A DNA stretch of 46,206 bases. Origin: a virus (taxonomy: Duplodnaviria; Caudoviricetes). The notes beneath the pieces are model-generated. The model saw only the letters and a program-made list of their open reading frames with translations, was not told where the DNA came from and searched no databases. Positions 5,271 through 33,300 of the stretch are shown piece by piece. A program made the translations under genes and the position numbers. The stretch is from the IMG/VR virus record IMGVR_UViG_3300048606_000106, positions 1 to 46,206 of that record, one strand, 5' to 3'. The stretch's first letter is position 1; the number at the start of each line of letters is the position of its first letter.

Positions 5271-6353
5271 CTACATCTTCCTGCTGGTCAGACTGTAAAA
5301 CTGGTTCGCAAATACCCGCGCTTGACCGGAGCAGCCGAGCAATCGCATGCCCGGCTTCGGGTGGTCGCCAGCTTGTAAGCTGCCCCAGTGGCTGGCATTT
5401 ACGCAAGGGGTGGTGAGTTTGCCGAGTTCCCAGTCCGCTACTCGCTGCATCGTCGCGCGCCAAAATCCAGCGTACTTCGACCAGTCGAGATTGCGTGGCC
5501 AGTGGTCCGGGCGTGCGTCACCGTCGTACGAAAGCTCAAGCAGCCAGGGGCGGCGGGCTTGCTGACTGTCGCTGCCGAACAGCCGGCAGTAACCGGTCAC
5601 ATGGTCGATGAGCGTGAGCGCTGGGTCGACACGCTGCCGTTGGTGCCACCGGTTCGCCAACGCGCCAAGGATTGCGAGCTGCTCTTGCGCTCTGCTGGCA
5701 CGACCGTCCGTGTCCACGCCGACCTCGGCTGCGAGACAGATGGCGAGTGCCCGGTGGAGTTCGAGCGTCCACTGGTCGGGCTCTACCGGGGGCGGAAAAC
5801 GCCTTGCTTCTGCAGGCGTTTGGCCGCTTCCTCCATCGCCCCTTCCATGTCCATCCGCTTGACCGGCGCGTCCGGATTGAAGTCGGGATACCACTCCGCG
5901 AGCACTTCGAACGTTGCCGCTTTGAGCTTGGGCATGTAGCGGGCTATCTGCGCTGGGCGTGACATCAGCGAACGTCGGGACTCCTGCTTCGCCTTGCGCT
6001 GTTGGCGATGCGCCTTCGCTGACGTGGTCTCCACGCTCATCCCAACGAACTTGCGCTGGGTAGGCGCTACCGGCGTCGGTCGCTTTGGTGATTCCGGATC
6101 GTTCACGTGCGCCTCGTAGTGATCGAACGCTTCCCGCATCCGCGGTGGCAACGGTGACTCTCCCGGTCGCCAAGCCTCCGGGCCCGCGTTCACGTTGAAC
6201 AGCGGCTCCTCGTCGAGGGTCGTGTGCCACGGCGGCGTGCTCTTTGGCGTGTGCATCAACCGTCTCCTGCAGGCTGTGATTTTGCTTGAGCAGCAACGCC
6301 TCTGACACCAAGAGCGCCAGACACATCACGCGCATGGTCGCGAGCATGCTCAT
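5271..6353 (-). CDS. Putative secreted/anchored protein with a SleB/Hydrolase_2-like C-terminal domain, interrupted by a frame-preserving insert
   Basis: ATG overlaps the tad1 stop; hydrophobic N-terminus (MRVMCLALLVSEALLL); globular domain from PDQWTLELHRALAICLAAE; off-frame-looking middle. Confidence 0.55.
   Translation of the reverse strand: MSMLATMRVMCLALLVSEALLLKQNHSLQETVDAHAKEHAAVAHDPRRGAAVQRERGPGGLATGRVTVATADAGSVRSLRGARERSGITKATDAGSAYPAQVRWDERGDHVSEGASPTAQGEAGVPTFADVTPSADSPLHAQAQSGNVRSARGVVSRLQSGRAGQADGHGRGDGGSGQTPAEARRFPPPVEPDQWTLELHRALAICLAAEVGVDTDGRASRAQEQLAILGALANRWHQRQRVDPALTLIDHVTGYCRLFGSDSQQARRPWLLELSYDGDARPDHWPRNLDWSKYAGFWRATMQRVADWELGKLTTPCVNASHWGSLQAGDHPKPGMRLLGCSGQARVFANQFYSLTSRKM
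5783..6256 (-). CDS. Nested hypothetical protein (157 aa) in an alternative frame inside 5271..6353
   Basis: Own SD (AGGAG) 7 nt before ATG; codons mostly G/C-ending; natural-looking residue composition. Confidence 0.75.
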   Translation of the reverse strand: MHTPKSTPPWHTTLDEEPLFNVNAGPEAWRPGESPLPPRMREAFDHYEAHVNDPESPKRPTPVAPTQRKFVGMSVETTSAKAHRQQRKAKQESRRSLMSRPAQIARYMPKLKAATFEVLAEWYPDFNPDAPVKRMDMEGAMEEAAKRLQKQGVFRPR

Positions 6354-6721
6354 ACCTCGTGGCTTCCTTCGACGCCGCGGCCCTCTCGATTGCGTGTACG
6401 AAGCTCCAGCGCTTCTAGCGCCTTGCCTACCGAGGCCAGAGCCACCGCGTTCTCGACGCACGCGTACTTGCTCGACTGAAAGCCGCGTAGGCGATCGGCG
6501 ACGATGACCAGTAGAGCTTCGTTTGTGATTCCGTTGATGCCAGTCGTCCCGATGGGGCCGTGCTGGAAAGACAACATACACCCGTAGTCACACCCAGCCT
6601 CGCTCATCGCGGTGATGTCATACTCGTGACTCGCGTTGCCGTTATTCGGGTCGGGCTCGTCTGCCTCGATCTTGATGGCGCGATTTGTGGAATTGGTGTG
6701 GTGTTCGGTTATCAGTCTCAT
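6350..6721 (-). CDS. tad1: Tad1-family Thoeris anti-defence (cyclic-nucleotide sponge) protein
   Basis: G.ASHEY...FQHGP....GINGITNEALL.IV.DRL..FQ...YAC.ENA.AL..V..AL..L..R...R..RGVEG matches the Tad1 family pattern. Confidence 0.85.
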   Translation of the reverse strand: MRLITEHHTNSTNRAIKIEADEPDPNNGNASHEYDITAMSEAGCDYGCMLSFQHGPIGTTGINGITNEALLVIVADRLRGFQSSKYACVENAVALASVGKALEALELRTRNREGRGVEGSHEV

Positions 6722-11932: not shown

Positions 11933-12469
11933 TTATCGAGCCACCCTGTTCCACTCGGCGGGAGTTTTGGCGCCCTTGTCCCGGTTGCATTCGGCGCACG
12001 ACGTCGCGAGATTCTCGAGAGAGTCAGATCCGCCACGGCTCAGAGGCTCGATGTGATCAACCTGTCCGGTTTGGATGCTCACCGGCGCTTGACAGTACCG
12101 CCACGCCCATCCGTCCCGCTCAAACACCGCCCGCCTGGGCAGCGGACCGCGCGCGCGCCACCGTCGCCGACGTTCCTCGACAGACTCCTTGGTGTCCTGA
12201 AGCTCCGACCAACCGCAGAATTGAAAACCGTCGTCAGTGCGTGACCACAGGCCAAGCGATACCAGGCGCTCAGCGACAGCGGAGACGCGGCCACCAAACG
12301 GGGTTAGTCTCGACAGCCGCGCACGGGTTACGTGTCCGTCGGTAAGACGGTTGCGACAATCGCAGCCGGCGGCGAGCCATACCGCCAGACACTCGGCCCA
12401 TGCCACTGGGTCGGCTAGCAGCTGGTCGAACACCTCGCTGTCCGGAAACTTTTCGTGGACGTAGAACAT
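11933..12469 (-). CDS. Initiator-like N-terminal domain fused to HNH endonuclease
   Basis: LTDGHV...LVSLGLW...FCGWSELQ, then RDGWAWRYC, VDHIEPLSRGG, NLATSCAECN.DK. Confidence 0.85.
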   Translation of the reverse strand: MFYVHEKFPDSEVFDQLLADPVAWAECLAVWLAAGCDCRNRLTDGHVTRARLSRLTPFGGRVSAVAERLVSLGLWSRTDDGFQFCGWSELQDTKESVEERRRRWRARGPLPRRAVFERDGWAWRYCQAPVSIQTGQVDHIEPLSRGGSDSLENLATSCAECNRDKGAKTPAEWNRVAR

Positions 12470-12472
12470 GCG

Positions 12473-13240
12473 TTAGTGCGTCTCCGGTTTTGCGTGCCGC
12501 GCGCCCGACGTGGCAGCAATCATTGCGCTTCGCCACGCAGCCCAACCGTAAGACGCCTGGAGAATCGCCCTCATCTCGGGAAAGGAAACTCCGGCAGCTC
12601 GCGCGTCTTTGATCACGCCAATGGACAGGCCGTCGTTGTATCCAAACGCCTTCCTGAGTATCGCTAGAAGGTGCGCCTGATCCTTATACCCAGGGTCTTC
12701 GCGCTCACGTTTTCGAACAGCCGCTACGCCACCGATTTTATGAAACGCCTCGTTCGGATCGGCGTAGTGATCGAAGCTGATTGTCGCGGCGGTTAGTATT
12801 TCTGCCAGCCCGAACTTTCTGACAATCTTCCGGAGCTCCTTCTCACCAACTTCGTTGAGCACCTTCTTGTGTTCGTCGAACAGCTCGTTCACGTGCGCCA
12901 GTGCCGCATCAAACTCCATATCCTTCGACTCCGTCAGGCCACGATGCCACTCGAGCATCAGTTCAATCTGCTCCTTGCGCGCTTGAAGCTCTTCCAGTTG
13001 GCGCCGACGCTTCTCCACAACCGAGTCGTCCGACAACACCCGCGCACCCTTGCCGAAGTTGCACGGCTGGCAAGACGTGACCAGATTCAAGATGTCATCG
13101 TCGCCGCCTTCCGCGACCGGGTGGACGTGATCGACGTGAAGGATGACGTCGGGCGCCTTGCTGCCGCAGTACTGACAGGTGAACGAGTCGCGCTTGAAGA
13201 CTTCGAAACGCAGTTTTTTGGACAAGCTCTTCCGTGCCAT
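12473..13240 (-). CDS. HNH endonuclease with helical C-terminal extension
   Basis: LRFEVFKRDSFTCQYCG, LHVDHVHP, NLVTSCQPCNFGK; alternative start at 13282. Confidence 0.9.
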   Translation of the reverse strand: MARKSLSKKLRFEVFKRDSFTCQYCGSKAPDVILHVDHVHPVAEGGDDDILNLVTSCQPCNFGKGARVLSDDSVVEKRRRQLEELQARKEQIELMLEWHRGLTESKDMEFDAALAHVNELFDEHKKVLNEVGEKELRKIVRKFGLAEILTAATISFDHYADPNEAFHKIGGVAAVRKREREDPGYKDQAHLLAILRKAFGYNDGLSIGVIKDARAAGVSFPEMRAILQASYGWAAWRSAMIAATSGARHAKPETH

Positions 13241-13278
13241 CTCAACCACCCTCCGCGCCAAACAAAGCCTCTTGCCGC

Positions 13279-14244
13279 TCATCCACGGTTCGCACCCGCC
13301 TCGAACAACCCCTGCTGCCGGTTCGACGTCACGCTCTTCAGGTTCCTTACCGCCTGCATCCAATACGATGCTTTGAGCTCCGCGCCGATGAACCGCCGAC
13401 CCTCCTGCAGGGCCACGTAACCCTCGCTCCCGATGCCGGCGAACGGTGACCACACAACCTCGCTCGGCGCCGTCCAGAGGCGCAGGCAGCGTCGAATCAC
13501 ACCTAACTGGAGGGCACAGAGGTGGCGCTCGTCAGCGTGTTCTCGCGCCATCCGAACCTGCAGCGTGTTGCCGGGATCGATCCCACTGTCGTCGTCCGTA
13601 GACTTCTCATCCGCGTTGCAGATCGCAAACCCCTCCTCATCCATCCCGTCGGTTGTCACCCACACCGGACTCGCGTAACGCTGCCAGCGAGACACGGGGA
13701 AGTCGTCGTGTGTGTGCGCGACCGGATCCGGATTAGTGCCTGGGTTCCGCATGACAACCAGATAGTCCGGGATGCCCTGCCTCGACATGGACGAGTCCTT
13801 CCGAATCGTCTTGTGCAGCAAACCCAGAGCCTTCGTGCGCTGCATGGCCTGCACCGGGTCTTTCCAGATGCACACTTCCGAATGGAAGATGAACCCGTGC
13901 TTCTGATACGCGCGAATCATGTCGCCGCGAAAGTCACGGATGCCGATGTAGCCGTCGCGTTCCTTGCTCGTGGGCAAGTTCATCACGTGCATGGCAATGA
14001 GCCGGCCTGGCTTCATGACACGGCGTTGTTCCTCGATCAGGTAGTCGTAGTGCTCGAAGAACTGCGCATCGTTCTTGACGTTGCCAAGGTCTCGCGGCGA
14101 GTTCGAATAAACATACAGGCTCGAGAACGGTGGCGAGTAGACCGAGAAGTCAACCGAAGCGTTCGGTAATCCCTTGGCAACTTCGATTGTGTCCGCGTTG
14201 TAGAGCGACCAGTTGTCACCGTGTGCCTGCGATTCAACGTTCAT
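13279..14244 (-). CDS. Beta-class amino (N4-C/N6-A) DNA methyltransferase
   Basis: Catalytic SPPF near N-terminus and FAGIGS SAM-binding motif near C-terminus. Confidence 0.92.
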   Translation of the reverse strand: MNVESQAHGDNWSLYNADTIEVAKGLPNASVDFSVYSPPFSSLYVYSNSPRDLGNVKNDAQFFEHYDYLIEEQRRVMKPGRLIAMHVMNLPTSKERDGYIGIRDFRGDMIRAYQKHGFIFHSEVCIWKDPVQAMQRTKALGLLHKTIRKDSSMSRQGIPDYLVVMRNPGTNPDPVAHTHDDFPVSRWQRYASPVWVTTDGMDEEGFAICNADEKSTDDDSGIDPGNTLQVRMAREHADERHLCALQLGVIRRCLRLWTAPSEVVWSPFAGIGSEGYVALQEGRRFIGAELKASYWMQAVRNLKSVTSNRQQGLFEAGANRG

Positions 14245-16106
14245 GAGGCCGACCCCGTAAGCCAAGATGGTTTCTGCATCGGTTCGTTTGCCCGATACTC
14301 GTTCGTTTGCCGCCGCGCCCCGCGAACCTCTGCGCGCACAACACCGGCCGTTTCCGCTGATAACTCCGCCGCCATTGCCTCAGCATCCCGCTCCTTACGC
14401 TTCAGGTTCTCGACCACGGCACCCTCGAGTTCGGATGCAAATACATGGACGGCAACTGGCTTGGTCTGACCAAAGCGCCAGCACCGGCGCACGGCCTGGT
14501 GGTACGACTCCCACGAGTCGTCCACGCCAACAAACGCCATGCGGCTGCAGTGTTGCCAGTTCAAACCGAATCCGAAGCACTTAGGCTTCGTGATCAGCAC
14601 CTGCGTACGTCCCATACGCCACTCCAATTCCATCGACTCTCTGTCGTCGAACGGCGTCGATCCTTGAATCGACACGCACGAAATACCGCGTTCTTGGAAC
14701 AGCTTCTCTAACGCATCCTGCTCCGTGTTGAGCTGGCACCAAACCAACCATTTCTCTCGACTTTCGCAGGTACTCGGCGGCGGCGTTGTGGCCCTTGGCA
14801 GACAGCGCCGCCTCGCTCTCTCGGTAGCGGCCGAGTCGCATGTTGCAGATGTTGCAGAGGATGCCCCGCACTCTTCCGTTGGAGTGGTCGTGGTCGATGT
14901 CGAATCGCCGGCGCTCGGTTTGTCTGCGTCCGCAGATGGCACACAACCACTGTTGTGCTTCAAGCATCGCGATGTATGACGATTCGTCGAGTCCGTACGT
15001 GCGGAGATTTTCTCTGAAGGATCTTTCTCGATAGGCGTCGGCGTTGGCCCGGTAGTACTCCCTGAAGTATTCTCGCATCCGATCTTTGTTGGCGACCCTG
15101 TATACGGCGTTGTAAGCGTTGCGCTTCTCAATGTGTCGGAGTCTTGAATTGCGCTGATTCTCGAGTCGCTTTTCACGATTGGCTGCGTAGTAAGCGCGCC
15201 AGTATTCAGGGCGTGATTTTCCCATTCAACCATCTCCACCAAACGCGCGACCCGCGCGCCAATCGATCCGCGGCGCGCTTGCCTGCGCTCCATCAATCCG
15301 GCAGCGGGCTCTGCGAACAGGAGGCCAGCGGCACGCGTTGACTCTTCGTCGGCCGGTATGATGTGGTGCTCGACAGTAAGCGCGGGCAGATCGTAGTCGG
15401 TTGCGTCGTATCCCAAGTCTGCCGGCGAGCGGACCAGCGCACCCCAGCTCGCGACGAACCGCCAGAACACGGCGCGTGCGTGGCCCTTGAGGCGCCACTT
15501 CTGCGTCTCGCCGCCGTCGTGCACGAAGTACTCGGACAACATCTCGGCGCGCGAGCACACCCCAAGAAGCTCAGCGTGATTGCCCAGTTCCGTGTAATCG
15601 TTGGGCGATGGCGTCGCGGTGCACGCGAGTCGAAACGGCGTGTTCGAGAACGCAAGCAGCAACGCCGCCAACGTCTTGCCGTTGAAGGACTTGCAGATGC
15701 TCGATTCATCCCAGACAACGCCGTCGAACATGCTTGGGTCGAACAGGTGCAAGCGCTCGTAATTGGCGATGTTGATGCCGGGGCCAACGTCGGCAGCCTC
15801 GCGACACACGCGAACATCTATGCCGATGGCAACACCTTCGCGCGCGGTCTGCGCAGCAACGGCGAGCGGCGCAAGAATCAGCACGGGCTTGCCGGTGTGT
15901 TTGACTACGGCATCAGCCCACGTGACTTGCATTCTGGATTTGCCTAACCCGGTTGCGCAGAACAAGGCCGCACGTCCACGCCGCAGCGCCCACTGCACAA
16001 GGTCACGCTGGAACGCGAACAGGTGCGGCGACTCGACGACCGCATCCACGATGCCGGTCGGCGTTGAACGTTCGAGCTTGGTCGCGACGAAGTCCTGATA
16101 GTTCAT
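14241..16106 (-). CDS. SNF2-like superfamily 2 helicase with a ~154-codon frame-preserving insert
   Basis: ATGLGKS, WDESS, TATPSPN, WLVWC, GFGLNWQ and QAVRRCWRFGQ motifs; S/T-rich non-helicase segment at ~14766-15227. Confidence 0.9.
   Translation of the reverse strand: MNYQDFVATKLERSTPTGIVDAVVESPHLFAFQRDLVQWALRRGRAALFCATGLGKSRMQVTWADAVVKHTGKPVLILAPLAVAAQTAREGVAIGIDVRVCREAADVGPGINIANYERLHLFDPSMFDGVVWDESSICKSFNGKTLAALLLAFSNTPFRLACTATPSPNDYTELGNHAELLGVCSRAEMLSEYFVHDGGETQKWRLKGHARAVFWRFVASWGALVRSPADLGYDATDYDLPALTVEHHIIPADEESTRAAGLLFAEPAAGLMERRQARRGSIGARVARLVEMVEWENHALNTGALTTQPIVKSDSRISAIQDSDTLRSATLTTPYTGSPTKIGCENTSGSTTGPTPTPIEKDPSEKISARTDSTNRHTSRCLKHNSGCVPSADADKPSAGDSTSTTTTPTEECGASSATSATCDSAATERARRRCLPRATTPPPSTCESREKWLVWCQLNTEQDALEKLFQERGISCVSIQGSTPFDDRESMELEWRMGRTQVLITKPKCFGFGLNWQHCSRMAFVGVDDSWESYHQAVRRCWRFGQTKPVAVHVFASELEGAVVENLKRKERDAEAMAAELSAETAGVVRAEVRGARRQTNEYRANEPMQKPSWLTGSAS
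14581..15225 (-). CDS. Endonuclease VII-family (homing-type) nuclease nested out of frame in the helicase gene
   Basis: YGL....Y..ML..Q...CAIC, IDHDHSNGRVRGILCNICN..LG; SD GGAG upstream of ATG. Confidence 0.92.
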   Translation of the reverse strand: MGKSRPEYWRAYYAANREKRLENQRNSRLRHIEKRNAYNAVYRVANKDRMREYFREYYRANADAYRERSFRENLRTYGLDESSYIAMLEAQQWLCAICGRRQTERRRFDIDHDHSNGRVRGILCNICNMRLGRYRESEAALSAKGHNAAAEYLRKSREMVGLVPAQHGAGCVREAVPRTRYFVRVDSRIDAVRRQRVDGIGVAYGTYAGADHEA

Positions 16107-16201
16107 GGCGTCATGACCCCCGCCAAAGCCCCAAGCAACACCAACGCCAACCACGCGGCGCACGCGGCGGTTACGAGCTCGTCGAAGCTGGGCGCGTTCA
16201 A
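16103..16201 (-). CDS. 32-aa hydrophobic peptide
   Basis: TTG start overlapping the upstream stop; stop overlaps the helicase ATG. Confidence 0.45.
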   Translation of the reverse strand: MNAPSFDELVTAACAAWLALVLLGALAGVMTP

Positions 16202-16815
16202 GACACCACCGCCTCTCGCGCGATGGACACGAGCCACTCAGCGAACGCCACCGGCGTGCGTCGGCGCTGTTCCGCGGAACACACCTTGATGCCGGGCGGA
16301 ACTGCACCACCGCCAACCCGGCCGTTCTTCCGCATCTGGTTGCGTGCGCCGCTCACCCAATGCGTGGGCGTTCCACCAACGCGGATGCCGCGCTCAACCA
16401 GCTCGCGGTCGACGCCGACGAAGTAGAGCCAGGTCCTTTTGCGAGCAACGTGGCCCCATGAGACTTGGCAAACCTCGACAGAGAACCCGCGCGGCACGCG
16501 CGATCCAAACATCGGAACGCATTCCCACCCAGGGTTTGGCAGCTTGCAGTGTTCCCAGAGCTTCGATCCGGCTGGCTGCTCAAGCACACCGCCGTGCTTA
16601 CGAACCTGCTCAACCGCGATTGGTCCGCAGTCGGCATGCGCGCCCTGGCTTAGGTGCCGCAAGCTCGACCATGCGCCACAGGGCGGATGCGCGATTACCG
16701 GCAGTGGGCCTGCGTACGCGCGGGCGTCGCGCGACTCGTCCCATGCATCGACGTCGAGCATGGCCGGATAGGGGCCGAGCCTGTCCACGTAGAGAGCTGC
16801 AACAACTTGTGTCAC
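16198..16815 (-). CDS. Short C5-cytosine methyltransferase-like protein
   Basis: HPPC (motif IV-like), VLEQP (VI-like), WGH.ARKRTW (VIII-like); no clear FxGxG. Confidence 0.6.
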   Translation of the reverse strand: MTQVVAALYVDRLGPYPAMLDVDAWDESRDARAYAGPLPVIAHPPCGAWSSLRHLSQGAHADCGPIAVEQVRKHGGVLEQPAGSKLWEHCKLPNPGWECVPMFGSRVPRGFSVEVCQVSWGHVARKRTWLYFVGVDRELVERGIRVGGTPTHWVSGARNQMRKNGRVGGGAVPPGIKVCSAEQRRRTPVAFAEWLVSIAREAVVS

Positions 16816-17177
16816 ATCGTCCTCCGCTCACGAAACCATGAGGCTCGCGCAGGGTAGGTGTACCGATAGCGCCGGCCAGCTTCGGCCGCGAAATTGTTAT
16901 TAAGCTTCACGCCCACAACACGCGTCCGCAGCTCCTCCCAAACGTGCTTCACAGCGATCTGGTTGCGTCCCTTTGCGGCAGCGTCATCAATCAACTCATC
17001 GGCAATCTCGCAGAACATCGACCAGACTTCGGTGTGACCTTGGAAAAAGGCTCTCGCCTCCGCATCCCAGTCCCGGTTAGCCGGCCGCAGCTGCCGCCTA
17101 CGCTTGCGCTGGACCGGCGTCGGTGTGGTGCTGGTGAGCAACGAGAAGATATCCGTCTGGCGGGCGGTTGAGGTCAT
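16812..17177 (-). CDS. Hypothetical protein
   Basis: Coupled ORF; WEELR...KLNNNF.A..GR motif typical of phage proteins. Confidence 0.7.
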   Translation of the reverse strand: MTSTARQTDIFSLLTSTTPTPVQRKRRRQLRPANRDWDAEARAFFQGHTEVWSMFCEIADELIDDAAAKGRNQIAVKHVWEELRTRVVGVKLNNNFAAEAGRRYRYTYPARASWFRERRTM

Positions 17178-19195: not shown

Positions 19196-20236
19196 TCACG
19201 CTGGGAACTCCCGCACGCGCAACGACTCAGGCCACTCGCTCGGGTCGCCGCCTTTGCGGTCCTTTAGTCGGGTGATGGCCCCGTAGTCGGGGATGACAGC
19301 CGGACACCGATGTCCGCCCACACCGTTCTCCGCGTCGACATAAGCGGAGCCGAGTTGCTTGCAGAAGACCGGCACGCTTGCGTGCTGGCACTGGCGCACA
19401 ACGTCGCGAATCCAGTCGACCGAGCACTGACGCGCGTTGGGCCCACTCTCACCACCGGCTACCAACCAGTCCAACCCAAACTCCCAAGTGCCGCCCGTGT
19501 TCGGCACGGCAGGGTCGGGATGCTGCAGACGGCGACCATCGGCGGAGACCAACGTGGGCTTCAGGTAGCGCGTGAAGTCGACGGCCTCTAACGCCGGCTC
19601 GTACGAGACCCAGCGCACAGCCGCGGGGCATTGTAAGAGTAGCGGGATGCGTTCGTCGGCGCGTTGCTGATCCTCACATGACACGCCGAGGTGCACGCCG
19701 CGCAACGGCCATGGGTAGCGTTTGAATGTGCCCTTGATCGGATGGAGTGGGAAACGATCACCCAGCAAGTTGTATGCGCACTGCTGCACAAACATCTCCG
19801 CGCCGGACGGTGTCTCGGACTGGCATTGCACCCACCGAAACCACTCGAGCATGCGTTCTGGACGCTTAGTCAAGCATTGGAACGTGTGCCGCGGACACGC
19901 CGCCATCACACCGAACACCGCCGCGATCTGTTCGTTGGTGATGTCGGAGTGAAAAAGATCACTCATCGAATTCACGAATACGCGCTGCGGCTTTCGCCAC
20001 TTCAGCGGTTCGCCCAGCTTCTCCGGAACGAAGCGCGCGTTGCCGACCCAGCGAGGTCCGTGCTTTCCGAGTATCGTGAGCCCCTCGTAGGACTGGCCCT
20101 TGCCGCTGAAGCGGTGGGCTTGGCGCTCGGCATAGCAGCCGCCGGCGGTACCCGTTCCGCAACCGGGAGAGACGCGCGCGCATCCCCGCGTTGGGTTCCA
20201 AACCGCGTCACACCATTGAATCTCAGACTTTGCCAC
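19196..20236 (-). CDS. Phage Gp37/Gp68 (DUF5131) family protein
   Basis: IQWCDAVWNP.RGC..VSPGC, CYAE, FVNSMSDLFH, LTKRPER, GGESG, FCKQLG. Confidence 0.92.
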   Translation of the reverse strand: MAKSEIQWCDAVWNPTRGCARVSPGCGTGTAGGCYAERQAHRFSGKGQSYEGLTILGKHGPRWVGNARFVPEKLGEPLKWRKPQRVFVNSMSDLFHSDITNEQIAAVFGVMAACPRHTFQCLTKRPERMLEWFRWVQCQSETPSGAEMFVQQCAYNLLGDRFPLHPIKGTFKRYPWPLRGVHLGVSCEDQQRADERIPLLLQCPAAVRWVSYEPALEAVDFTRYLKPTLVSADGRRLQHPDPAVPNTGGTWEFGLDWLVAGGESGPNARQCSVDWIRDVVRQCQHASVPVFCKQLGSAYVDAENGVGGHRCPAVIPDYGAITRLKDRKGGDPSEWPESLRVREFPA

Positions 20237-20750
20237 GGCGCGCATCCTCTCTGCTGTGATGGCAGCGCGAGCAAACGGGTTGCACGTCGAAGTGGTGTTC
20301 GGCCGCATAGCCCATGTGGTGATCGTATTCGTGACGCAAACCCTCGCCCTTGTGGCCGCAGTCTGCGCACGAGATGTCGTTGGGATTCGGACGCCGGCCC
20401 GACTGCACTTCGTGGTTTACACGTGCCCTGGCCTGCAGCTTGTCGCCATCGCGCGCAGGTTTCGGGTTAGGTCCCGGGCGTCCGGTCTTGGGGTTTATTG
20501 CAGGCGCAAGGTGCCACCCGCGTGGATTGCCAGTGCTTCGGCTAGAAAGGCAGCGTGCTGCCAATCGATCCCATCGAGATGGGTCGCGTCCAAAAGCGCC
20601 CACTGGATGCCAGACACGGCAGGCAGTGCACCACTTTTCGCCGGCAGCGCGTCTACACGTGTACTCGCTGAGCGAACAGCCCGTCTTTACAGCGGCCGAT
20701 TTGATCGCGCCAAGCCGTCTTCCGGTGCGGCCGTGCATCTCCGCGCTCAT
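20223..20750 (-). CDS. HNH-like Zn-binding nuclease
   Basis: KWCTAC, CADCG, HEYDHH.GY and VCSRCH motifs. Confidence 0.7.
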   Translation of the reverse strand: MSAEMHGRTGRRLGAIKSAAVKTGCSLSEYTCRRAAGEKWCTACRVWHPVGAFGRDPSRWDRLAARCLSSRSTGNPRGWHLAPAINPKTGRPGPNPKPARDGDKLQARARVNHEVQSGRRPNPNDISCADCGHKGEGLRHEYDHHMGYAAEHHFDVQPVCSRCHHSREDARRGKV

Positions 20751-21181
20751 TCTGTCCCCCGCATCTTCGCAGCAATCGCCCGCGCTTCATCCGCAACCGC
20801 ATCAACCGCCGCCGTCAGCTGCTCCGCCCTCTGCGCGTGGTCCGCGTCCCGCTCGTCTTCCACCCAGCGACGGCGACCGTGTCCGTTGCGAGCGCGGGAC
20901 TCAGCGATGAGTCGCAGCAGCGCATCCACCACACAATCCGGAGCGATCAGCAGATGCGCTAGATTCGGCGATTGCCCGGCTTTGGCGTTTGTCCAGATCG
21001 ACACGCGAGACGCATCAACGTTGAGTGCGCGGCCAAACTCGACGACAGACATCCCCACTTGGCGCAGCGCGCGCAGTACGAGCAGCGAACACTGGGAGGA
21101 GAGTGCTTCCCGGAAGCGATCGCGGCCGATTTTGTATTGACCACGGTGGCTAGCGTGGGTAAGTGGGGCCGGTGGAGTCAC
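20747..21181 (-). CDS. HTH regulator (CII-position gene)
   Basis: MSVVEFGRALNVDASRVSIW HTH; position downstream of cro. Confidence 0.65.
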   Translation of the reverse strand: MTPPAPLTHASHRGQYKIGRDRFREALSSQCSLLVLRALRQVGMSVVEFGRALNVDASRVSIWTNAKAGQSPNLAHLLIAPDCVVDALLRLIAESRARNGHGRRRWVEDERDADHAQRAEQLTAAVDAVADEARAIAAKMRGTE

Positions 21182-21846
21182 GCGGACACCTGGGAGCTGG
21201 AGTGGACGTCGCCGTTCAGCAGGTAATCTGTGGTGACGCCAAAGACAGCCGCGGTCATTGCGACGACGTGGCCCCTCGGCGCAGTCGTGTATCCACTCTC
21301 AATCCGCTGCACCGTTTTGAGTACAACGCCAGCACGCACGGCAAGCTGCGTTTGTGTAAACCCGTGCGCACGGCGCAGGCAACGAACGCGGGCGCCAAAC
21401 CCGACCGAGGCGACCACGTTCGCCGCAGCTACCTGCGGCGCGCTCCATGCAATCGAAACGACGCGCTTGGGATCGCCGCTGCAAATACAGCGGATTGGCG
21501 CCGGACACGTTGCTGTTGGTCCGGAGGTAACCCGGGAGCCGGACATCTCGCTGCGAACGTTGTAGCCGCGGACATCTGTTCCGTAGAGCGCGATGAACGC
21601 GGACTCCACCGCGCCGAGGTCCTGCCAGTTCGTCGCTGTGCCCAGGCGTTCAATGCAAAAGTTCTCTTCGCCGAACTCTCGAATCGCTGCGTTGATCTCT
21701 CTGTCTTGGCCGGTTCTGGCAGACGAGAGATGCTCGAGAAAACGTGCTCGGATGCAGCGCGTCGTCATCCCGATATACGCGAGGCCGTTCACGCGGTTGA
21801 GCAGGCGATACACGGAAGGCGCCGTGCATGTTGAGGGCAGATTCAT
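21178..21846 (-). CDS. GIY-YIG endonuclease fused to XRE HTH
   Basis: SVYRLLNRVNGLAYIGMT..IRARF.EH, GYN; C-terminal LRRAHGFTQTQLA.RAGV...TVQRIESG. Confidence 0.85.
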   Translation of the reverse strand: MNLPSTCTAPSVYRLLNRVNGLAYIGMTTRCIRARFLEHLSSARTGQDREINAAIREFGEENFCIERLGTATNWQDLGAVESAFIALYGTDVRGYNVRSEMSGSRVTSGPTATCPAPIRCICSGDPKRVVSIAWSAPQVAAANVVASVGFGARVRCLRRAHGFTQTQLAVRAGVVLKTVQRIESGYTTAPRGHVVAMTAAVFGVTTDYLLNGDVHSSSQVSA

Positions 21847-22064
21847 GCCGCCCTCTTGCGTTTGCGGCCACTCCCGTCGCGCCACCGAGCCGAATCGATT
21901 CCGGTGTACTCCTCGATCAGCATCGCGACTTCGAGGCCCGGTCTGCGCAAACCACGTTCAATCTTCGAGAGTTGGCTTGGGTCGCATCCGATGGCATAAG
22001 CGGCATTCAGAAGAGACAGGCCGGCCGCCTTGCGCCAAGCCTTCAGGGCATCTGCAGCATTCAT
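21843..22064 (-). CDS. cro: Cro-like XRE repressor
   Basis: LKAWRKAAGLSL..AA..IGCDPSQLSKIERGLRRPG; divergent from the cI-like gene. Confidence 0.85.
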   Translation of the reverse strand: MNAADALKAWRKAAGLSLLNAAYAIGCDPSQLSKIERGLRRPGLEVAMLIEEYTGIDSARWRDGSGRKRKRAA

Positions 22065-23229: not shown

Positions 23230-24678
23230 CTAGCGTAAGCTAGTCGCCGTAGCCGTGTGCGGCAGAATGCGAAGCCCTCCACCCTGCGCTTCGGCCGTAC
23301 GTATACCGACAGTTTCGCAGCCCGCTTCGAGCCGCACGACATAAGCGGCCTGGCCGGGCAAACGTCGCGCCCACACTGGATATCCCGAGCAATCCTGCAG
23401 CTCCCGGCGTCCGAACTCTCCAGCCGCCTGTGCCGATTGCAGCGCGCCGAGCGGCGTCCAGTCAGCAAATACCACGGCACCAACCGGGACCGTCTTGTCG
23501 TAGTCCCGCGCGAACTCCGCAGCCGAATCATCCTTCAGCCAAGGCGAAAGAAAATACTTGACGTCGTTTCGGTAGGCCAGCGCGTGCTCGTTCTTCGGCA
23601 GATGGAGCAGCCCGCGGTCCGCGGCGAGCACCACGAGTACGAACGCCAGCGGCGCAGCGGCGACAGCGCCGGCCGATACGATTGAGCGCCAAGCCGCGTC
23701 GGCAAAGCGCCTCTCGATCTGCAGCCAGGCGAGCACGGACAACAAAGCGACACCCGGAAGCAGAAATGTGAACCGATCGGCGACGTCGTAGCTCAATGCG
23801 AACACGAGGTTCGCGATTGCAGCCACCCAAACGGCGCGCTCCCGCCAGTCCCGCGGATAGAGCAGACCAACAGCTTGCGGGCCGCACAGCGACAGCAGCG
23901 CGATCACGGCGTACGCCTTGCCCGACCAGAGGCGGTCGAACCGAAAGAGGCTGCTCTCGTACCCGCCCGGGTGATCGGTAGCCGGCATCGCGTTGGTCAG
24001 GTAGGCGCGCGCAACCTCGAACGCGGACCGCCCATGGTGCAGTTCGGCGACGAAGCCGAGAAGGCAGGGTGCCAACCCGACGAGCGCGCCGATTCCGGCG
24101 AGCAGCGCTGACCCGCGGTAGACCCACAGCGTATAGACGTAGAGCGGCGCGACGCACAGGAGCGTGACCTGGTGCACCGACAGCGCCAGCCCAGTGAAAA
24201 GCCCAAGCAGAAGCATTCGAACGCGCGGACCAACGCGGAGCCGCAGGTCGAACACCACCCAGTAGCAGCCGAGCACCAGCAACGCGTTGAGCAGGTAGAC
24301 CTCGACCTTCGTGGAGATCCAGAAGACGCAGTGCGCGAGGCACATCGTGCACGCGGCGAAGATGCCGGCATTCAGGCTACCGCCCAGCACGATGACGATC
24401 CGCGCGACAAGGATAGCAACCAGCGGAAGTAGCAGCGCGTTCAGCAACGCGAGACCGCTCGCTCCGAAGCCGCCGACCACGAGTGCGGAAATCGCGTGAA
24501 ACAAAGGGTGTGACTGCGCTCCGAGCTCCGCGGGGAAGATGACGCCGCGGCTCGCCTCGTAGAGGAACGCGCCGCTGTCGCCCCATTGGACAGCGCTGCC
24601 GACGGCTGCAAAGCACACAAGGAAGACGAGAAGCAGTAGAGACAGACTCAGCCAGTTGCGTGTGGCGAGCGCGTTCAT
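23230..24678 (-). CDS. DUF2723/TMEM260-like GT-C membrane glycosyltransferase
   Basis: WGDSGAF, SHPLF, FW..STKVEVY.LN and GLALSVHQ motifs; many TM helices. Confidence 0.8.
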   Translation of the reverse strand: MNALATRNWLSLSLLLLVFLVCFAAVGSAVQWGDSGAFLYEASRGVIFPAELGAQSHPLFHAISALVVGGFGASGLALLNALLLPLVAILVARIVIVLGGSLNAGIFAACTMCLAHCVFWISTKVEVYLLNALLVLGCYWVVFDLRLRVGPRVRMLLLGLFTGLALSVHQVTLLCVAPLYVYTLWVYRGSALLAGIGALVGLAPCLLGFVAELHHGRSAFEVARAYLTNAMPATDHPGGYESSLFRFDRLWSGKAYAVIALLSLCGPQAVGLLYPRDWRERAVWVAAIANLVFALSYDVADRFTFLLPGVALLSVLAWLQIERRFADAAWRSIVSAGAVAAAPLAFVLVVLAADRGLLHLPKNEHALAYRNDVKYFLSPWLKDDSAAEFARDYDKTVPVGAVVFADWTPLGALQSAQAAGEFGRRELQDCSGYPVWARRLPGQAAYVVRLEAGCETVGIRTAEAQGGGLRILPHTATATSLR

Positions 24679-24920
24679 GACTCGCCTCCCGCAGACGCGC
24701 CGCTGCACACAACCGCGCGATCCATGCCCATCGCGCAGTAATAGTTGCGCCCGTGGCAGCGCGCGGTCCAGCCGTCGCCATCGCGTCCGACAATCTCGAT
24801 ATCGTCTTTCGAGCACGGCACGCGTCCTTGCGTCATGCGCAGCATGTAACCCCGCTCGCCGCCGAAACAGCTGCTGCAAAGAAGCGCTGACGTTGCCAGC
24901 GCAAAGCCTAACCGAAGCAT
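24675..24920 (-). CDS. Small Cys-rich putative lipoprotein
   Basis: Signal-like N-terminus ending LLCSSC; WTARCHGRNYYC; ATGA-coupled to the GT gene. Confidence 0.65.
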   Translation of the reverse strand: MLRLGFALATSALLCSSCFGGERGYMLRMTQGRVPCSKDDIEIVGRDGDGWTARCHGRNYYCAMGMDRAVVCSGASAGGES

Positions 24921-31619: not shown

Positions 31620-32342
31620 ATGAACCAAACCTATTGGGATCTGTCCGAAAAAGAACGCGCCCAACTCACCGAGTCCGAGGTCGAGCGCTACGTCGACTTC
31701 GAACTGATGACCAAGGGTGTGCTGAAGGTCAAGCCGCTGAAGCTGGTCGAAGTGCCGAAGATGCCGGAGTGTGACCTGACGCTCAGCGTGATCATGGCAG
31801 AAGGGTTTCGCGAGACCGACATAGGGTTTTTCCCTGACGAAGTGCCCTCGGCGGAGGCGGTGCTTTACGAGCACTTCCACATCGACAGCGAGTACGTGGC
31901 GGGCCAACTCGTGAAGGTGGCACGGCCGCTGAAGGCCAGCGCAACCGTCCAGCAAATCCGCGCGTACTCCGCCGACCGCTTCGCTACGGTTCGTGCCACG
32001 ATCGAGAAAGCGGCTTCGGCCAAGAGCGCGAACGAACGGACTCAGCGTGAGCACGACGCGGCCCACGCAAAACAGCGCGAGGCGTTGAAGGGCCTTTGGG
32101 AAGATTGGCACGAGTGCGTGGCGAAACAGGAGCGCCTCGGTCGTATCGTCGACACGTTCCATGACTACGTGAAGACTGCGGGCGACAACGTGATCGCGGC
32201 GAGCTTTCTCAGCAAAGCATTCGAGGCCGGAGATATCGCCGAGGCTGCCGAGTGGTTCGAGGTTGCGATTCCGCTGTTCTCCGGCGTGGATGTGCCGCCG
32301 CCTGCGCCGGCCAATGGGCTGCAGGACGACATTTCATTCTGA
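31620..32342 (+). CDS. Hypothetical protein with SSB-like acidic tip
   Basis: SD GGGGAG; ends LQDDISF. Confidence 0.75.
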   Translation: MNQTYWDLSEKERAQLTESEVERYVDFELMTKGVLKVKPLKLVEVPKMPECDLTLSVIMAEGFRETDIGFFPDEVPSAEAVLYEHFHIDSEYVAGQLVKVARPLKASATVQQIRAYSADRFATVRATIEKAASAKSANERTQREHDAAHAKQREALKGLWEDWHECVAKQERLGRIVDTFHDYVKTAGDNVIAASFLSKAFEAGDIAEAAEWFEVAIPLFSGVDVPPPAPANGLQDDISF

Positions 32343-32379
32343 GCTTACGACGCTGGGAAACGTGTGCAGAAGAACAGCC

Positions 32380-33300
32380 ATGATCAACTCATACCCAAGC
32401 GCAAAGAACCTCGGCCATCCACTGATTGCCGACTTACTTCTAGACGACGTACTCGTGGAGGAGAAAATCGACGGCAGTCAATTTTCGTTCGGGTCATTCG
32501 CGGGCGAACTGCAGTGCCGCAGCAAAGGCGCGCAGATCGAAGTGGCCGAACCAGAAGGCATGTTCGCGCGCGCGGTCGCTACGGCCAGGGAACTGCACGA
32601 GGCCGGCCTCACGCGCGACGGATGGACGTACCGCTGCGAGTACCTGCAGAAGCCCAAACACAACTCGCTGGCATATGATCACGTGCCGGCAAAACATCTC
32701 GCGCTGTTCGACATCGTGGTCGGTGTCGAGTCGTACATGACGCCAGCCGCCAAGCGCGAGGAAGCGCTGCGTCTTGGCCTGGACTGTGTGCCGGCAATGT
32801 TCGAAGGCCGGGTGGAATCGGTCGAGCAAATCCACGCGCTGCTCGACACGGTCTCGTGCCTCGGCGGACAGAAGATCGAGGGCGTGGTGATCAAGAACTA
32901 CGCGCGCTTCGGGCACGACGGGAAGATTCTGATCGGCAAGCACGTGTCCGAGGCGTTCAAGGAAGTGCACGCCAAGGAATGGAAGACCACGAGCCCAGGC
33001 GGCAAGGACATCCTCGGGCTGCTCTGCGAGGAGTACCGGACGCCAGCTCGGTGGGCGAAGGCGGTGCAGCACATGCGCGAGGCGGGCACGCTGCAGAACG
33101 CGGTGCAGGATATCGGCCCGCTGATCCGCGAGGCACAGAAAGACATCGAAGCGGAGTGTCTCGAAGAGATCAAGGAGAAGCTATCCAAGTGGGCGATGCC
33201 GCACGTCAAGCGCGCAGCCGTTCGCGGATTACCGGAGTGGTGGAAGGAACAGCTTCTGGCGCAGCAGTTCGGCGCAGACAACAAGGCGGGTGAACCATGA
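32380..33300 (+). CDS. RNA ligase (Rnl2-like nucleotidyltransferase)
   Basis: Motif I EEKIDGSQFS, ALFDI, EGVVIK and GKHVSEAFKE. Confidence 0.85.
   Translation: MINSYPSAKNLGHPLIADLLLDDVLVEEKIDGSQFSFGSFAGELQCRSKGAQIEVAEPEGMFARAVATARELHEAGLTRDGWTYRCEYLQKPKHNSLAYDHVPAKHLALFDIVVGVESYMTPAAKREEALRLGLDCVPAMFEGRVESVEQIHALLDTVSCLGGQKIEGVVIKNYARFGHDGKILIGKHVSEAFKEVHAKEWKTTSPGGKDILGLLCEEYRTPARWAKAVQHMREAGTLQNAVQDIGPLIREAQKDIEAECLEEIKEKLSKWAMPHVKRAAVRGLPEWWKEQLLAQQFGADNKAGEP

Follow-up and report, generated by a model that had tools for sequence, protein, structure and literature searches.

The window analysed here is a whole genome record, a single contig of 46,206 bases with 62% GC, and most likely represents a temperate phage because it encodes both a terminase large subunit and an integrase. 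On its minus strand lies a gene of 621 codons for a SNF2-type helicase/ATPase (14241..16106; Helicase_C, E 2.5e-11; phrog_62, E 1.4e-60), followed by a gene for an N6/N4 DNA methylase (13279..14244, minus strand; PF01555, E 5.9e-12), the usual partner of this helicase, whose start overlaps the helicase stop (ATGA). The initial annotation described the helicase frame as unbroken from motif I to motif VI, and this is borne out: there is no internal stop across the 621 residues, all six motifs are present (in the usual numbering), and of the 136 columns conserved in 95% or more of 91 homologues lacking the insert, the protein retains 135. An AlphaFold model (97 aligned rows) is confident except at residues 308-447 (pLDDT below 50), which sit between a helix at 282-302 and a strand at 453-457; pLDDT falls to about 30 in the insert described below, which is partly built in because few aligned rows cover it. 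The best PDB matches of the model are SNF2 motors, and by its motifs and its fold the protein is a SNF2-type SF2 ATPase. Its N-half (15228..16106, minus strand) is delimited by alignment and ends in the 282-302 helix, which precedes the insertion loop.

This loop contains an insert of about 153-154 codons (14766..15227, minus strand) which is S/T-rich and predicted to be disordered when read in the helicase frame. Alignment with insert-less homologues, as proposed initially, gives 459 nt (153 codons) beyond the modal empty spacer, which agrees with the first estimate of ~154 codons but leaves the junctions uncertain by a few codons. In the -1 frame relative to the helicase lies an open reading frame of 214 residues (14581..15225, minus strand), and its reading as a clear DHHRN-type endonuclease VII is upheld by matches to Pfam Endonuclease_7 (E 1.1e-19, residues 75-142) and, in the PDB, to T4 Endo VII (E 2.2e-5) and weakly to Hpy99I (E 0.0026). 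The C-terminal core (14800..15003, minus strand; residues 75-142) includes CxxC, DHDH, R and CxxCN, and hence the D, H, H, R, N and both CxxC of the DHHRN family as listed in the accessible text of PMC6083498. Immediately upstream of the nuclease ATG (15226..15237, minus strand) are an in-frame TGA (15228-15226) and an SD-like GGAG (15237-15234), which is 8 nt from the ATG, has a predicted anti-SD pairing energy of -6.4 kcal/mol and fits the claim that the nuclease has its own SD; a sigma-70 promoter scan returned no sites.

The nuclease frame, as had been noticed, lacks a stop at the distal junction and overruns the helicase C-half by about 56 codons (14581..14750, minus strand), ending 167 nt beyond a conserved Trp codon at 14750. 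This is the longest overrun among the 26 elements described below, the others ending between -7 and +67 nt from that codon. Loss of a stop at the junction likely caused the overrun, which may mark either tolerance or decay; because the nuclease also occupies a long branch (1.9) and the 56-codon tail is unusual, the window copy may be decaying. The imperfect repeat reported at the two ends of the insert exists, as GAGATGGTTG (15227..15236, minus strand) and GAAATGGTTG (14745..14754, minus strand, encoding the native E-K-W-L), but it is at chance level and probably incidental. The copies are 482 nt apart, which is not a multiple of three, and the mean best terminal repeat is 7.8 nt in an element's own ends and 7.3 nt in cross-paired ends, so that the repeat is no feature of the family and we rejected it as a target-site duplication or splice signal. 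Terminal repeats of at least 10 nt occur in three of 26 elements (cross rate 0.048), and in two of the three the repeat is a duplicated SD-start region of a split element.

A Logan contig spanning 14438-16600 matches the window with no differences and no gaps. Since the single sample behind this contig may also be the source of the window, the existence of a family is the stronger argument against an assembly artefact. A protein search gave 7745 matches among 8000 scored candidates, and 13 of 25 aligned homologues, chosen from the best 120 for length or coverage together with insert-less controls, have a low-complexity insert in the same loop. We then pooled 284 DNA loci with the window. Both helicase halves are present in 246 loci (some contigs counted twice), of which 167 are empty, 45 have 13-90 extra bases and 34 have larger inserts; the C-half is missing in 25 loci and the end of the N-half in 14. 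Inspection of 13 of these 14 (the other, Pacc40, was inspected separately) revealed five further nuclease carriers, all open over the visible stretch. An Endo VII gene occupies 32 of the 34 larger inserts, giving 26 distinct elements at below 90% identity, with a median pairwise identity of 40%. Their catalytic residues are intact in every case, and none of the 26 is the in-frame helicase-nuclease fusion that had been named as a possible refutation. An SD of -5 kcal/mol or stronger precedes 12 of the 26 nucleases, against 12% of 336 background ATGs, a rough tally because starts were called as the first ATG or GTG.

The patterns by which most elements were found target the downstream segment or the N-terminus of the nuclease; this inflates the frequency of elements but is independent of whether the helicase frame is open. 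The nuclease N-terminal pattern recovered 19 loci, five with an Endo VII motif; a pattern scan of genome contigs gave no matches, an alignment scan was kept to the best 80 of 439, and a nuclease query against viral contigs found four loci, none with the helicase. Among cultured Gordonia phages, Squiddly gp64 and Malisha gp71 contain the nuclease and are annotated only as DNA helicase, while Holliday gp68 is empty. In one locus (L085, reverse strand 2191-2743) a relative from the same nuclease subfamily stands by itself immediately behind a methylase-like gene; its GC is 0.38, both alternative frames are closed, and it is a possible source or escaped form.

Twenty-three of the 26 elements keep a single helicase frame across the insert, and this frame is +1 to the nuclease in eight (S/T-rich, the window included) and +2 in 15 (G/E-rich). 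Whereas host codon usage predicts 100.8 stops and self-permutation of the nuclease codons 80.4, the helicase frame of these 23 frame-matched elements contains none at all; the expected sums overstate independence because the elements are related. The third frame, open in none of the 23, contains 144 stops where 129-141 are expected. In the +2 class a third-position T before AA, AG or GA is never used (0/521, which is zero by definition, with about 135 expected from the 327/1261 seen elsewhere); the corresponding counts are 47/346 in the +1 class and 62/161 in the split elements. Evidence for the +1 class is weaker than for the +2 class, only 4.4-12.1 stops being expected in its eight members, and the window copy taken alone is weak evidence (1.4-1.6 stops expected; P(0) 0.18-0.19). 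Ordinary helicase DNA from the same loci is open over 150-codon windows in 0/46 cases in the +1 frame and 4/46 in the +2 frame. Uncorrected pS/pN proportions for 14 pairs are 0.62/0.28 in the nuclease frame and 0.29/0.38 in the host frame, indicating that amino-acid selection is acting on the former and not the latter. Across the family this makes a strong sequence-based case that the open helicase frame is kept by selection, and, with no stops and amino-acid selection on the nuclease frame only, it appears that the helicase frame must be readable but that what it spells is unimportant.

Directly downstream of the insert, the helicase segment from motif IV to V (14535..14750, minus strand) differs between element-bearing and empty alleles, chiefly in its first 50-60 codons, and has likely been co-converted. 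Tests of mobility used 17 of the 26 elements; the other nine did not pass a filter that required a long N-half and a distal motif that could be recognised. On a tree of N-halves (105 rows) these 17 elements require 16 changes (shuffled mean 16.0), 13 of them forced by starred branches; the distribution is disjunct and patchy, as homing would predict, although tree counts of this kind cannot separate gain from loss. For allele pairs with 78-97% N-half identity, 12 comparisons of an element with an empty allele average 48% identity in the segment against 84% in the N-half and 88% in the distal C-half, whereas 17 comparisons between empty alleles give 79% in the segment and 86% in the distal C-half. 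Identities for N-half, segment and distal part are 90/49/96% for Squiddly and Holliday, and 67/49/77% for the window and its nearest empty helicase (L205, on a contig labelled uncultured Myxococcales, a label that does not assign a host). Squiddly and Malisha are 99-100% identical across the insert and the next ~60 codons and 67-100% identical outside. An EQ plus S[IV]xG signature, scored outside the pattern scans, marks 7/7 elements and 1/92 empties, three of the seven being the window and the hand-picked Squiddly and Malisha; the EQ signature without a nuclease occurs in 15/88 empties, a set enriched by the pattern scans. The segment contrast is not significant at 55-78% N-half identity (p 0.066). 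When all 26 elements are compared, the segment follows the N-half (Mantel r 0.74) more closely than it follows the nuclease (r 0.19), so that in the long run nuclease and segment are not tied to each other. Flank co-conversion is presented in the accessible part of PMC2988022 as an established mark of homing, and the contrasts between alleles point to it indirectly, more weakly at greater distance.

The anatomy of the locus, the family-wide lack of helicase-frame stops, the patchy distribution and the divergent downstream segment are, in our judgement, probably best explained by a homing element that needs no splicing: an Endo VII gene lying out of frame within an open phage helicase gene, with the helicase likely translated straight across the insert as a predicted disordered loop and the nuclease likely produced independently, from a start of its own. 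What we infer here from sequence comparison is read-through, expression of the nuclease and homing. According to this model, the nuclease would cut empty alleles, probably inside the ~60 codons that follow the insertion site, and repair would then copy both the nuclease gene and a cut-resistant version of that segment, while the 621-residue helicase would fold and work with the loop in place.

The alternative that survives best, though we think it unlikely, is that the helicase acts as two chains, either because a protease clips the loop after read-through or because the C-half has an internal start such as a TTG after the Trp codon. Three of the 26 elements (L038, L102 and L229; GC 0.48, 0.36 and 0.49), representing two origins, are indeed split at the loop, the N-half being closed by stops and an SD with an ATG lying three codons upstream of the conserved Trp, and a split nrdA with mobE is functional according to the accessible text of PMC3045599. 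However, none of the 23 open elements has an in-frame ATG, GTG or TTG within eight codons upstream of the Trp, and internal starts would make a stop-free insert unnecessary; clipping after read-through is compatible with all of these data. Two further loci have lost most of the insert: L059 is left with 26 extra codons and, in the other frame, the nuclease tail, and L037 retains both ends of a P0109-like insert together with an element-type segment. The split forms and the remnants, which favour our main reading as regards the position of the insert in a loop, show that this loop can accommodate either a break or a remnant, and the losses kept the frame. Separately, 13-codon remnants with two CTC Cys pairs occupy the insertion loop of L161, L171 and L172, and L093 and L099 have there a 55-codon non-nuclease insert with C/H residues.

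It is very improbable that ribosomes bypass the insert by passing from one matching codon to the other, or that an unrecognised intron takes it out of the RNA. RNA splicing or bypass would not require a stop-free helicase frame, and selection against stops would serve no purpose in an insert that ribosomes skip; the initial suggestion of a stop-less bypass is not supported. The matching GAA codons on which it drew do flank the insert in frame, and bypass cassettes without a stop after the take-off codon are described in the accessible part of bioRxiv 2022.08.31.505936, but matched take-off and landing codons are found in 14/23 elements against a proportion of 0.61 in 506 cross-paired controls, which is chance. 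The elements show neither a stop after the take-off codon nor a hairpin conserved in the family. Rfam searches of 12 element loci and of window positions 13500-17000 detected no introns, and thus no catalytic RNA core of group I or II, their only matches being one tRNA in the 12 loci and one sub-threshold miRNA match in the window. Intein ends (C/S at the start, His-Asn/Gln at the end and a +1 nucleophile) are not conserved across the 23 inserts, Helicase_C is the sole Pfam match of the helicase, with no folded splicing domain, and the insert is unfolded in the model. Taken with the stop-free frames of the family, these searches agree with the original description of an overprinted Endo VII gene without intron or intein.

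We also considered a Cys/His clasp at the insert ends and rejected it, as none of 23 DNA elements satisfies a rule of two Cys in the first 16 and one in the last 16 residues; the window insert has one His and one Cys at its ends. Cys pairs do bracket the inserts in P0012, P0022, P0025, P0029 and P0088, in the remnants L161, L171 and L172 and at the Pacc40-type site.

That the window helicase is non-functional or dispensable and its frame open by luck is likewise very unlikely. A stop-free copy would arise by chance with a probability of about 0.18 in the window, but the near-complete retention of its conserved columns and purifying selection on the downstream segment among elements (pS/pN 0.76/0.26) argue against loss of function, and the family-wide stop pattern is not luck. 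Least probable of all is that, instead of homing, the nuclease serves the adjoining methylase as a domesticated, restriction-like partner, since most helicase-methylase loci lack it (167/246 empty) and the patchy distribution and sharp segment swap beside the insert fit homing, even though the methylase is directly downstream, the Hpy99I match is weakly positive and Endo VII-motif restriction enzymes beside methylases are known (accessible text of PMC6083498).

Returning to the splice-free homing element, the class (+1, +2 or split) changes four times on the nuclease tree against 9.7 times when shuffled, where only 3/23 branches are starred and the window row is long, and GC is at least 0.52 in all 23 open elements. 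It is conceivable, although we would not go so far as to call it probable, that one homing Endo VII lineage meets the problem of gene interruption at a single helicase loop in three ways, by +1 read-through, by +2 read-through or by splitting with a new start, that it switches among these with the four class changes and splits only in lower-GC phages, and that it carries its own cut-resistant piece of the target. If so, overprinting and gene splitting would be the extremes of a single way of homing without splicing, one that annotation pipelines miss.

The nuclease insertion is real, recurrent and splice-free, and belongs to a kind whose first description, for other phage nucleases, dates from 2025. 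The initial annotation had supposed a strategy different from those known; that supposition has to be given up in view of the stop-free, out-of-frame HNH insertions in phage methylase genes (ShiLan domain) reported in PMC11855218 (Arsenault, Gosselin and Gogarten, 2025), for which retention as a loop was offered as a proposal only. As far as the accessible text goes, the ShiLan and Pacc40 cases share with ours a same-strand nuclease in another frame, a stop-free host frame, no intron or intein, a predicted loop and a patchy distribution; the present insertion is likewise absent from homologues, contains a complete nuclease ORF, lacks intron and intein features and is disjunct in its distribution. 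Pacc40 gp60 is itself a fused member of the same helicase-methylase family, with an HNH insert in its N-half after FVQRPSD. The present elements differ in encoding an Endo VII (DHHRN) rather than an HNH nuclease and in occupying a loop before motif IV rather than the ShiLan or Pacc40 site. They differ further in using both alternative frames, in their split sister forms, in-frame remnants and travelling segment of ~60 codons, and in the SD-like site of the window copy. Stop-depletion statistics, absent from the accessible text of PMC11855218, are given here.

Other known systems resemble the family in part, again as far as the accessible text of each source goes. Out-of-frame nuclease genes have been described inside inteins, Endo VII-like in actinobacteriophages (bioRxiv 2025.01.02.630785) and LAGLIDADG in cyanobacterial dnaX (bioRxiv 2026.09.14.751524), with the same overprinting, open host frame and selection on the nuclease frame; there the insert leaves the protein by means of the intein, whereas here we find no splicing domain or conserved splice residues. 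F-CphI, a homing endonuclease of the DHHRN family (PMC6083498), shares the C-terminal Endo VII motif, including the residues D, H, H, R, N and two CxxC, but is free-standing and gains self-protection from a neighbouring intron, while the nuclease here lies inside its likely target. The three split elements recall mobE in Aeh1 nrdA and mobA in T4 gene 39/60 (PMC2988022; PMC3045599; bioRxiv 2022.08.31.505936), and the MobA element likewise comes with a replacement region that is homologous, comparable to the passenger segment, but 23 of our 26 elements keep one continuous host frame and none has a bypass cassette.

Our literature search, in which subscription journals were thinly covered and preprint supplements could list cases, found no publication on Endo VII at this helicase site, nor on the two frame classes, split sister forms or passenger segment, and only unrelated publications for Squiddly or Malisha. 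The 2025 description rested on a few actinophage genes, with read-through as a proposal; the family adds quantitative evidence for selection keeping the host frame open, and documents open, split and remnant states at one site. For laboratory work it offers three cultured phages of Gordonia terrae, of which Squiddly and Malisha carry the element and Holliday does not, and it shows that annotated 'long' helicases can conceal an unannotated nuclease gene.

Several other features deserve mention. A second site of the helicase family, ahead of GYxLP in the N-half, is occupied in L138, L150, L164, L202 and L044 (Pacc40) by stop-free S/T-rich inserts bracketed by Cys pairs, and a hidden HNH frame was read only in Pacc40. 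The helicase gene of L057, which also bears an Endo VII element, is interrupted at motif II by 939 nt of intein-like sequence (C...HN, then S), and a long ORF in another frame of this insert may resemble a VSR-type nuclease. Elsewhere in the window, a second long open frame (5271-6581, minus strand) holds a nested ORF of 158 residues (5783-6259, minus strand). By codon bias, the nested ORF is preferred in the middle of the region and the long frame over the last third. A lead below 0.9 connects the long frame with cell wall hydrolases; for the nested ORF there is no usable match, and the region could be two adjacent genes or another gene within a gene. Nuclease-like genes lie nearby at 11933-13453, 20223-20750 and 21178-21885 (minus strand), comprising two HNH genes, a GIY-YIG plus HTH gene and a Cys/His-motif ORF that overlaps the start of a DUF5131 gene and has no family match. 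A weak PMT/TMEM260-like membrane glycosyltransferase gene (23230-24879, minus strand; E 0.0015) falls below our cut-off, and an RNA ligase-family gene is encoded at 32263-33300 on the plus strand (E 8.4e-13).
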